A DNA stretch of 5,586 nt from a virus (taxonomy: Duplodnaviria; Heunggongvirae; Uroviricota; Caudoviricetes). The translations under genes were made by a program, and so were the position numbers. Below, in pieces: positions 626 to 2,404 of this stretch. The stretch lies in IMG/VR virus record IMGVR_UViG_2548876957_000005; one strand, written 5' to 3'. The notes below the pieces were generated by a model. That model worked only from the letters and a program-made list of their open reading frames with translations. It made no database searches and was not told the DNA's origin. The first letter of the stretch is position 1; each line of letters begins with the position of its first letter.

Positions 626-2404
626 GTGACTCTTAAACGGGCCTGTTCCCTGCTGACGGTGAAATCCTTCAGTGAGGATGAACGGGTGATCACCGGGATT
701 GCGTCAACGCCTTCTCCGGATCGGGATGGTGACATCCTGGAGCCGGAGGGCGCGGAGTTTGGCAGTGCGATACCGTTTCTCTGGCAGCATGACCATTCCC
801 GCCCGGTGGGGCAGTGTACGGTGCGCCGGGTCAGCGAAGGGCTGGAAATCACGGCAACACTGGTGAAGCCCGTACCGGATATGCCGTCGCAACTGGCTGC
901 CCGGCTGGATGAGGTCTGGGCGGCCATTAAGACCGGGCTGGTCAGGGGGCTGTCCGTGGGCTTCCGTCCCCATGAATACACCTTTCTGGACGGAGGCGGA
1001 CTGCATTTTCTGCGCTGGGAACTGATGGAGGTGTCTGCCGTCACCGTGCCCGCGAATGCGGAATGCACCATCCGGACCATTAAATATTTCGACCGCCCGT
1101 TTTCTGCCGCGTCCGGCAACCGGAAACCGGTGGTGAAAATCGCATCTTCTGCCGGCGCTGCGGCACAGTCAACAACCGTTTTTCATAAGGAAAAGACCAT
1201 AATGAATATTGGCGAACAGATTAAAAGTTTTGAAAACAAGCGTGCAGCGCTGGCAGCCTCCCTTGAGGAGGTCATGACCAAAGCCGCAGAGGAAGGGCGC
1301 ACGCTGGATGTGGAGGAGGAAGAGCATTACGACAACACCGCAGCGGAAATCCGTCAGGTGGATGCGCACCTGAAGCGCCTGCGTGAACTGGAAGCCGGTA
1401 AGGCCGCCACGGCGCAGCCGGTGAAACAGGCCGGTAACGGGAATGTGGCCGCGGTGGCTTCTGCGCCGGTGATCCGTGTGGAGCAGAAACTGGATAAGGG
1501 GATTGGCTTCGCCCGCTTTGCCAAATCGCTGGCTGCGGCTAAAGGCGTCCGATCTGAAGCCCTGGAAGTGGCCCGTCGTCAGTATCCGGATGACAGTCGT
1601 CTGCATCATGTCCTGAAATCGGCAGTGGGCGCGGGGACCACCACGGATCCGCAGTGGGCAGGCAGCCTGTCTGAATATCAGGAATACGCACAGGACTTTA
1701 TTGATTACCTGCGTCCGCAGACCATTATCGGGCGATTTGGTCAGGGCGGGATCCCTGCACTTCGTCAGGTGCCATTCAATATCCGTGTGCACGCCCAGGT
1801 GTCCGGCGGTGCTGCCGGCTGGGTGGGTGAGGGTAAGGCAAAACCCCTGACGAAGTTTGATTTTGAATCCATCACCTTCAGTCATGCGAAGGTGTCGGCC
1901 ATTGCGGTACTGACGGAAGAATTGATCCGTTTTTCCAGTCCGGCTGCTGATGCACTGGTCCGTAATGCGCTGGCGGAAGCGGTGGTGGCGCGTCTGGATA
2001 CAGACTTTGTGGACCCGAAAAAAGCCGCAGTGGCAGATGTCTCCCCGGCGTCCATCACCCATGATGTGAAGGGCACGGCATCAACCGGTAACCCGGATGC
2101 GGATGCAGAGGCTGCGTTTGGACAGTTTGTGGCAGCAAACCTGCAGCCCACCGGTGCGGTCTGGCTGATGTCCAGCACCAATGCCCTGGCACTGTCCATG
2201 CGTAAAAATGCGCTGGGTCAGAAGGAATACCCGGACATGACCCTGCTGGGTGGCTCCTTCCAGGGGCTGCCGGTGATTGTCTCCCAGTACGTGGGTGACC
2301 AGCTGGTGCTGGTGAATGCCCCGGATATTTATCTGGCTGATGACGGCGGTGTGGCGGTGGCGGTGATCACCGGAGTGAACTACGGCAGTGCGTCCGGCGG
2401 CTGA
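626..2404 (+). CDS. Prohead protease (HK97 family, peptidase S78-like) fused in frame to a delta/scaffold segment and an HK97-fold major capsid protein
   Basis: 592-codon ORF with GTG start at 626, 5 nt after AGGAGG (615-620), ending at TGA 2402-2404. The N-terminal ~160 aa (SFSEDERVITGIASTPSPDRDGDIL...WQHDHSRPVG...GLSVGFRP) look like an HK97-type prohead protease. Residues ~193-290 are a charged, helical delta-domain-like segment (MNIGEQIKSFENKRAALAASLEEV...HLKRLRELEAG). The remainder has a typical HK97 major-capsid pattern (...GWVGEGKAKPLTKFDFESITFSHAKVSAIAVLTEELIRFS...). No stop separates protease from capsid in this frame. Confidence 0.85.
   Translation: MTLKRACSLLTVKSFSEDERVITGIASTPSPDRDGDILEPEGAEFGSAIPFLWQHDHSRPVGQCTVRRVSEGLEITATLVKPVPDMPSQLAARLDEVWAAIKTGLVRGLSVGFRPHEYTFLDGGGLHFLRWELMEVSAVTVPANAECTIRTIKYFDRPFSAASGNRKPVVKIASSAGAAAQSTTVFHKEKTIMNIGEQIKSFENKRAALAASLEEVMTKAAEEGRTLDVEEEEHYDNTAAEIRQVDAHLKRLRELEAGKAATAQPVKQAGNGNVAAVASAPVIRVEQKLDKGIGFARFAKSLAAAKGVRSEALEVARRQYPDDSRLHHVLKSAVGAGTTTDPQWAGSLSEYQEYAQDFIDYLRPQTIIGRFGQGGIPALRQVPFNIRVHAQVSGGAAGWVGEGKAKPLTKFDFESITFSHAKVSAIAVLTEELIRFSSPAADALVRNALAEAVVARLDTDFVDPKKAAVADVSPASITHDVKGTASTGNPDADAEAAFGQFVAANLQPTGAVWLMSSTNALALSMRKNALGQKEYPDMTLLGGSFQGLPVIVSQYVGDQLVLVNAPDIYLADDGGVAVAVITGVNYGSASGG
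1202..2404 (+). other. Candidate in-frame internal translation start giving a capsid-only product (delta domain plus MCP, 400 aa) nested in the fusion ORF
   Basis: ATG at 1202-1204 is in frame with the fusion ORF and preceded by AAGGA (1187-1191) about 10 nt upstream. The product would begin MNIGEQIKSFENKRAAL, which resembles an MCP delta-domain N-terminus, and 400 aa is a normal length for an HK97-type MCP with its delta domain. Use of this start is inference. Confidence 0.4.

Follow-up and report, generated by a model that had tools for sequence, protein, structure and literature searches.

A fused S78 prohead protease–capsid gene family with a conserved putative internal start, and a deletion allele of it in an Escherichia coli prophage

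The DNA analyzed here (referred to throughout as the window: 5586 bp in full, IMG/VR record IMGVR_UViG_2548876957_000005) is the head-gene block of a long-tailed lambdoid Escherichia coli prophage (Stx-type, Pankowvirus-like). At 626..2404 it encodes a single open reading frame (ORF) of 592 amino acids in which an S78 prohead protease, a linker, a scaffold-like delta segment, and a truncated HK97-family capsid domain follow one another without an internal stop codon. We describe this fused gene, the family to which it belongs, and a conserved internal start from which the delta segment and the capsid domain may be translated on their own.

The ORF and the features within and around it described below all lie on the plus strand. 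The ORF begins with a GTG codon at 626, which stands 6 nt after a Shine-Dalgarno (SD) sequence, AGGAGG (614..619). The NCBI Prokaryotic Genome Annotation Pipeline (PGAP) annotates 626-2404 as a single coding sequence (CDS; WP_062854036.1), and phage records label the gene ‘major head protein/prohead protease’. Its prohead protease domain (amino acids 1-151, 626..1078; Pfam accession PF04586) includes an invariant His55 and Ser110 and is followed by a variable linker predicted to be disordered (amino acids 152-192, 1079..1201), which is marked by indels and low conservation in our alignments A3 and A4. The delta segment (about amino acids 193-290, 1202..1495; within the scope of TIGR01554) is scaffold-like and modeled as helical, and the remainder is an HK97-family capsid domain that is incomplete at its C-terminal end (1496..2404; Pfam accession PF05065). 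A second candidate start lies at the beginning of the delta segment: ATG 1202-1204 is in frame with GTG 626 ((1202-626)/3 = 192) and stands 10 nt after an SD-like AAGGA (1187..1191), opening a nested ORF from Met193 (1202..2404) that contains the delta segment and the capsid domain and is 400 amino acids long here and 453 in intact relatives. A preliminary description of the window had placed protease, delta segment, and capsid in one frame with no stop and had drawn attention to the nested ATG, the AAGGA upstream of it, and the frame of a 400-amino acid product. The coordinates confirm these points, and the single ORF proves to be conserved in its family. The capsid domain of that description is also present, but a 159-bp in-frame deletion within it had been overlooked.

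Profile searches support the domain assignments. Peptidase_S78 (PF04586) matches amino acids 48-151 at 34.3 bits, above its cutoff of 21, and Phage_capsid (PF05065) matches amino acids 386-572 at 42.6 bits, above its cutoff of 24.2. The NCBIfam model TIGR01554 (major_cap_HK97), which includes the delta domain, matches amino acids 204-573 at 75 bits (cutoff 27.5), with amino acid 204 aligned to profile position 3. The match to the NCBIfam prohead protease equivalog TIGR01543 falls below its cutoff (45.4 bits vs 59), and the window protease is a divergent S78 member without an equivalog-level match to this model. The protease looks competent, because a comparison of alignment A5 with HK97 gp4 using hhalign (E = 7e-6) aligns Ser110 with the catalytic Ser114 and brings His55 to within one column of His65, and because alignments A3, A4, and A7 show both residues to be invariant or conserved at 90% or more. 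Pfam returned no match to a ClpP-family protease in the fused ORF, the N-terminal protease being S78, and a sequence search of the PDB gave one marginal capsid match only (9d9w, E = 0.009).

An AlphaFold2 model of the fused protein, run on a 26-sequence alignment of close homologs, has a mean predicted local distance difference test score (pLDDT) of 45. The protease (amino acids 1-141) is modeled with moderate confidence (pLDDT ~75), amino acids 142-193 have the low scores of a disordered linker (pLDDT ~25), and the delta segment forms two helices (195-222 and 229-262, pLDDT ~73). When the modeled protease domain was compared to the PDB with Foldseek, the top 19 matches were all herpesvirus proteases, including those of Kaposi's sarcoma-associated herpesvirus, pseudorabies virus, human cytomegalovirus, and Epstein-Barr virus, though these matches are weak (best E = 1.5e-3, TM-score ~0.3). 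Matches of this type would be in keeping with the S78 family.

The fused gene is widespread. Intact relatives of the protein have 644-647 amino acids, and almost all of the top 120 matches in a protein collection clustered at 90% identity are of this length and contain both PF04586 and PF05065. Hosts among these top matches include Salmonella, Enterobacter, Klebsiella, Serratia, Pantoea, Kosakonia, and others. In an exhaustive search, 146 of the 150 best 50%-identity representatives (36-53% identical to the query) contain both the protease and the capsid part. Fused loci are also present in Mesorhizobium, Reyranella, Chelativorans, Rhodobacterales, Burkholderiaceae, and Candidimonas, and the single fused ORF spans three classes (Gamma-, Alpha-, and Betaproteobacteria). 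A total of 94 phage records contain this single ORF, and the profile phrog_617 matches the intact representative P0001 over nearly its whole length (E = 2.8e-260, residues 1-639 on profile positions 7-626 of 626). The 626-2404 ORF is thus a member of a large, old family of HK97-type fused head genes (PHROG 617), and the fusion itself is a known class that is recognized in databases. A further curated fusion model, NCBIfam NF045541 (scaf_prot_MCP2), describes another family: its cutoff is missed by far (53 bits vs 525), and the match covers amino acids 48-287 only. The Pankowvirus phi330 is an infectious siphophage, indicating that intact fused versions make viable virions (PMC12502783). Our first scan of viral contigs gave close relatives only, and a second scan was seeded with distant sequences.

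Some cluster representatives depart from the usual architecture. Two predicted proteins of 1091-1094 amino acids (P0123 and P0130) have an AAA ATPase domain at the N terminus in addition to the capsid region. Pfam detects the S78 domain in P0130 only, and these may represent either a larger fusion or a gene-calling artifact. Another predicted protein (P0002, 784 amino acids, from a 6.6-kb assembly) contains the protease, the capsid part, and the C-terminal third of the portal domain, and a further deletion at this locus is its probable origin.

The significance of the internal SD comes from its conservation in relatives and not from the window sequence alone. In the window, the predicted duplex with the anti-SD sequence is -10.3 kcal/mol for the 5' AGGAGG vs -6.2 kcal/mol for the internal AAGGA, and 11% of in-frame positions in the ORF equal or beat the internal value, which makes it unremarkable by itself. 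Across the family, the homologous codon is of start type in all 73 fused genes that we read at the DNA level (ATG in 71, GTG in L024, and TTG in L020), each time with an SD upstream, and corresponds to the first residue of the conserved delta segment. At the protein level, methionine occupies this boundary in 131 of 146 fused cluster representatives (overall methionine frequency 2.5%), and most of the others have valine or leucine, encoded by GTG and TTG in the two such cases read at the DNA level. Of 47 fused representatives, 45 have an AGGA, GGAG, or GAGG motif at -17..-5 relative to this codon, compared to 6% of other in-frame positions, with the motif 6-10 nt upstream of the start codon. 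This motif is kept through changes in the residues that it encodes (KE, KG, QG, TG, and KEG), and its glycine codon is without exception GGA, a codon that these genes otherwise seldom use. Among 26 more distant fusions, most have an internal SD of GGAGG type (about -10 to -12 kcal/mol), and in roughly 16 no other site in the gene pairs better with the anti-SD sequence (lowest ~0.5% of positions). In most of the 36 representatives compared, the 50 nt surrounding the internal start rank among the 1-5% of the gene with the least structure and the lowest GC content. The 5' start outside the E. coli clade consists of GGAGG and ATG at the same place, and GTG is the start codon of the E. coli clade. 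The nested-start signal proposed in the preliminary description is therefore within chance when the window is taken alone (the 11% of positions given above) but is conserved family-wide and matches the capsid starts of the split relatives described next.

Relatives in which the protease and the capsid protein are encoded by separate genes provide a second view of this site. In four of them (L030, L125, L127, and L136), the start of the capsid gene coincides with the internal start codon. A split locus from Snodgrassella has its protease stop at 3203-3205 and its capsid ATG at 3229. In three viral contigs (L125, L127, and L136), the two genes share a reading frame that is broken by one in-frame stop (split regions at 1225-1233, 1252-1296, and 1210-1290, respectively). 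The L125 sequence (1225-1233) reads ...ACA TAG ATC ATG, with one codon, ATC, between the stop and the capsid ATG. Representatives that consist of the major capsid protein only (P0220, P0250, and P0268) begin at query residue ~192-194. Judged from these sequences, a single in-frame stop shortly before the internal start appears to be all that separates split forms from fused ones. Low-level readthrough of the stop codon in split forms is conceivable.

Codon usage also differs between the two parts of the gene. The fraction of optimal codons in the window is 0.49 in the protease domain, similar to the terminase and portal genes, and 0.62 in the capsid part. Among 30 Enterobacterales homologs the mean fractions are 0.505 for the protease and 0.639 for the capsid part, with the capsid part higher in 28 of the 30. 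The separate HK97 genes gp4 (0.61) and gp5 (0.70) differ in the same direction. An equal flux of ribosomes along one polypeptide would predict no such step, and translation appears to be higher downstream of the internal start.

The copy of the gene in the window differs from intact relatives by the deletion, which we identified by alignment with Stx2a_WGPS6. It removes 159 bp (53 codons) in frame, with its junction at about 2351..2365, within a short GTG-GCN-GTG (Val-Ala-Val) direct repeat. The window copy covers positions 38-228 of the 280 in PF05065, compared to 38-279 in the intact P0001; its capsid fold is incomplete, falling short of full profile coverage. The deleted segment is highly conserved in the family and includes the near-invariant residues S581, M588, S606, Q609, E618, W623, and R627. 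It has a weak collinear match to about residues 341-374 of HK97 gp5 (alignment A7, hhalign E = 0.009, probability 4.6%), which serves as a rough guide, and the comparison of the shallow alignment A5 with gp5 gave nothing meaningful. We surveyed the junction in 5426 complete E. coli genomes with an 81-nt probe across it and found the deletion junction in 36 genomes (61 places) and the intact junction in 1064 genomes (2100 places). The deletion allele occurs at up to three places per genome (hits H41-H52), mostly in enterohemorrhagic E. coli (EHEC) strains such as O26 and O111. This pattern suggests that it has spread between co-resident lambdoid prophages by recombination.

The surroundings of the deletion allele bear on its function. 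E. coli prophages that are 99.8% identical to the window over its full length include one in the chromosome of the EHEC-type strain 97-3250, and the Stx-converting phages 2851 and Stx2a_WGPS6 (genus Pankowvirus) are 99.4% identical to it, one gap aside. In the 99.8%-identical prophage of strain 97-3250 (L001 26142-29586), the tail-fiber/host-specificity gene J is truncated and followed by ISEc22, an insertion sequence (IS) element of the IS66 family. This interruption of gene J in a near-identical prophage is consistent with the prophage that carries the window copy being defective. Because 53 codons of the capsid fold have been lost and the prophage looks defective, the window copy is most likely a minority deletion allele that is decaying and non-functional, though its ORF is open. 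The expression logic considered below thus applies to the family and not to a working gene in this prophage.

Taken across the family, the conserved features of the internal start make it probable, in our estimation, that two products are made: the full fusion from the 5' start and a delta-plus-capsid protein from the internal start. We infer the use of both starts, their ratio, and the cleavage steps from sequence comparisons. Initiation at the 5' start would produce the full fusion, in which the protease is covalently tethered to a capsid subunit and built into the procapsid lattice, so that some capsid subunits would bring it into the procapsid as an extension at their N termini. From the conserved internal SD and ATG (1187-1191 and 1202 in the window), ribosomes would make a protein of only the delta segment and the capsid domain, probably more of it than of the fusion. 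Once assembly is complete, the protease would remove the linker and the delta segments, as well as itself, by cleavage. We also lean, with slightly less assurance, toward a more general proposal in which the whole S78 fusion family is a dual-initiation unit, with a minority of protease-tethered capsid subunits and a majority from the internal start, and in which lineages switch between a tethered and a free protease by the loss or gain of one in-frame stop. The preliminary description had envisaged a rare fusion and an abundant capsid protein, a ratio indirectly favored by the unstructured, AU-rich internal start and the higher codon adaptation downstream but at odds with the stronger SD of the 5' start.

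Several considerations weigh against this interpretation. The Enterobacterales clade has a weak internal SD (AAGGA, -5.6 to -6.2 kcal/mol, ~10th percentile of in-frame positions) and a strong one at the 5' start. Homologs share ancestry, so our counts do not represent independent events. The AU-rich island could partly reflect a linker rich in lysine and asparagine, and the rise in optimal codons, scored by the usage of highly expressed E. coli genes, might be left over from a time when the two genes were separate. The AlphaFold2 model is unusable for the capsid part (pLDDT <50), and we kept its conclusions on the protease, linker, and delta segment only; the structural effect that we ascribe to the deletion is for this reason read from profile coverage and the weak gp5 alignment. 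Our literature search found no experimental study of the expression of an S78-capsid fusion or of its starts. It also found no virion proteomics for this head type, and the peptide maps in the phi330 paper are for podoviruses only (PMC12502783). A preprint on the cyclic oligonucleotide-based antiphage signaling system (CBASS) that gave many matches for ‘fusion’ concerns the protease-scaffold protein of T1-like phages and was set aside as not relevant.

A different account of the same features is that only the full-length fusion is made, each capsid subunit bringing its own protease, and that the SD-like motif and the methionine are kept for other reasons, such as a ribosome pause at the domain boundary that aids protease folding, a residue constraint at the start of the delta segment, or a relic of two genes. 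The tripartite gene of the Salmonella phage Gifsy-2 is usually pictured with one protease per capsid subunit, and by a rough volume estimate ~415 copies of an internal part of ~32 kDa would fit in a T=7 HK97-type prohead, which would make one protease per subunit physically feasible. The stronger SD at the 5' start also fits this account, and our literature search turned up no second product. However, neither a pause nor a residue constraint explains why ATG, GTG, or TTG is found at the boundary, and the upkeep of a nucleotide-level motif through amino acid changes and with a rare glycine codon is left unexplained. The same is true of the location of this motif at the least structured and most AU-rich site of the gene and of the rise in codon adaptation downstream within one ORF. 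A relic would be expected to decay in a linker that cannot be aligned between lineages at 33-50% identity. We thus regard exclusive production of the fusion as unlikely and the two-product reading as the better fit to these data.

Two further alternatives concern the fusion and the window copy themselves. The existence of split relatives with a single in-frame stop, and of separate gp4 and gp5 genes in HK97, might suggest that the fusion is an artifact or a recent accident in which two ordinary genes were joined by a sequencing error or a lost stop. We give this practically no credence, as at least 946 E. coli records contain most of the window, the annotated ones show one CDS, and the single ORF recurs in the 94 phage records, 146 of the 150 nearest protein clusters, and three proteobacterial classes. 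Sequencing error, a two-gene artifact, and a frameshift were accordingly rejected, the frame being continuous in hundreds of records. A stop or frameshift at ~1105-1200, which the preliminary description had named as the finding that would overturn it, is excluded by hundreds of independent assemblies; the homolog alignment that it had proposed as a check for a separating stop shows fusion in nearly all of the nearest clusters, though some split relatives do have an in-frame stop. As for the window copy, the deletion allele might be functional, either forming an altered shell or acting with the capsid protein of co-resident prophages. The deletion keeps the frame, the remainder of the ORF is intact, and the allele has reached 36 genomes at up to three places each. 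Against this, the last ~50 of 280 capsid-profile positions are removed, the lost segment is nearly invariant in the family (e.g. S581, W623, and R627), the allele is rare (61 vs 2100 places for the intact junction), and gene J is IS-disrupted in the host prophage. A functional deletion allele therefore seems very improbable, and we continue to view the window copy as a decaying one.

A classic question is how a closed procapsid, in tailed phages and in herpesviruses, comes to contain the right small number of proteases. Several known systems resemble the fused gene in part. The HK97 proteins gp4 and gp5 belong to the same S78 protease family and to the same capsid family with an N-terminal helical delta segment, and the protease gene is immediately upstream of the capsid gene. 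In contrast to the single frame in the window, gp4 (3348-4025) and gp5 (4028-5185) are separate genes in different frames, and the HK97 protease is targeted to the prohead non-covalently. The portal gene precedes the protease gene in HK97, whereas it follows the capsid gene in the window.

In lambda C/Nu3, and also in Mu I/Z, a start codon inside the protease ORF, in the same frame, gives a second product consisting of the C-terminal part, so that a minor protease-tagged and a major untagged species share an assembly domain. The hallmark of such nested genes, an in-frame internal start with its own ribosome-binding site (RBS), is present in the window (1187-1191, 1202). Lambda makes the scaffold Nu3 as its nested product and has a separate gene for the capsid protein E, whereas in the fused family the internal start would yield the capsid protein itself along with its delta scaffold. 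In the herpesvirus UL26/UL26.5 genes, likewise, the protease is delivered at the N terminus of an assembly protein, and this abundant protein is also produced without it from a nested in-frame start. The window protease may share the fold class of the herpesvirus enzymes (the Foldseek matches are weak). The nested herpesvirus product has its own transcript and serves as a scaffold, not as a shell protein. The likeness to lambda C/Nu3 noted in the preliminary description is thus apt, with UL26/UL26.5 equally close.

Other protease-capsid fusions have been described. One ORF of Gifsy-2 reportedly encodes an N-terminal protease, a scaffold-like center, and a C-terminal HK97-fold capsid domain. 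Its protease is said to be ClpP-like (S14/S49) and its capsid lambda-like with a decoration protein. In this description Gifsy-2 shares with the window gene a tripartite one-ORF architecture in a lambdoid enterobacterial phage and differs from it in the protease, which is ClpP-like in the Gifsy-2 and Paracoccus types, unlike the S78 protease here. PHROG 4523 (‘major head and protease protein’) and NF045541 (‘prohead protease/major capsid protein fusion protein’) have the same architecture but represent other sequence families. A passage of PMC7762592 cites the ‘tripartite capsid gene’ of Gifsy-2 (Effantin et al. 2010, Virology 402:355), and an entry among the SEA-PHAGES function names for actinobacteriophages reads ‘major capsid and protease fusion protein’. 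Fused capsid-protease genes are also reported in Rhodobacter RcC-cluster phages (10.1101/2021.08.04.455094) and ClpP + gpT fusions in Paracoccus (PMC6536676). Internal initiation is not addressed in the literature that we found on annotated protease-capsid fusions. The earlier remark that such fusions exist in databases while their expression is rarely characterized therefore stands: curated families exist, and we found no expression study.

These comparisons make the window ORF a gene of known kind, with a probable nested-start variant. The family offers a natural experiment in which the same protease-capsid pair appears tethered or free, one stop codon apart, with the internal start kept in both. 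If the two-product reading is correct, the dosage of the protease would follow a rule that is genetically tunable by the strengths of two RBSs, in a very common group of prophages that includes Shiga-toxin-converting phages. The family would also be the phage parallel to herpesvirus UL26/UL26.5, with the capsid protein, and not a scaffold, carrying the protease. There is an annotation issue as well, as such genes are now labeled only ‘phage major capsid protein’ and deleted alleles share the label of intact ones.

The fused gene is flanked by two putative hairpins. A terminator-like hairpin (GAACCGC-TCCG-GCGGTTT followed by a T-run, 587..614; fold -16.1 kcal/mol, z = -2.6) lies between the terminase gene and the RBS of the fusion gene, and the HK97 record has a putative terminator annotated at the equivalent site before gp4. 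A 9-bp GC-rich hairpin without a T-run (2419..2441; fold -19.5 kcal/mol, z = -1.96) directly follows the stop codon of the fusion, and HK97 annotates a putative terminator after gp5.

The remaining genes in the window were assigned through profile searches where a match was available. The C-terminal part of the terminase large subunit gene (terL) is at 2-562, and an ORF of unknown function (73 amino acids, phrog_829) is at 2449-2670, between the capsid and portal genes. The portal protein (859 amino acids) is encoded at 2616-5195 and a head-tail connector at 5198-5524. The gene order in the window is thus terL, protease/capsid, small ORF, portal, and connector, with the portal downstream of the capsid gene, compared to terL, portal, protease, and capsid in HK97. 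The small phrog_829 ORF is conserved and has a 55-nt overlap with the annotated portal start (2616). Within the 859-amino acid portal ORF, the Phage_portal domain comprises amino acids 54-382 only, leaving a C-terminal extension of ~470 amino acids. This extension contains a 162-bp (54-amino acid) tandem repeat (window 4203-4735; 3.3 copies, 95% identity) and ends in a stretch with a weak CBM_5_12 match (amino acids 811-833). Some phage records annotate the portal region as two portal genes.

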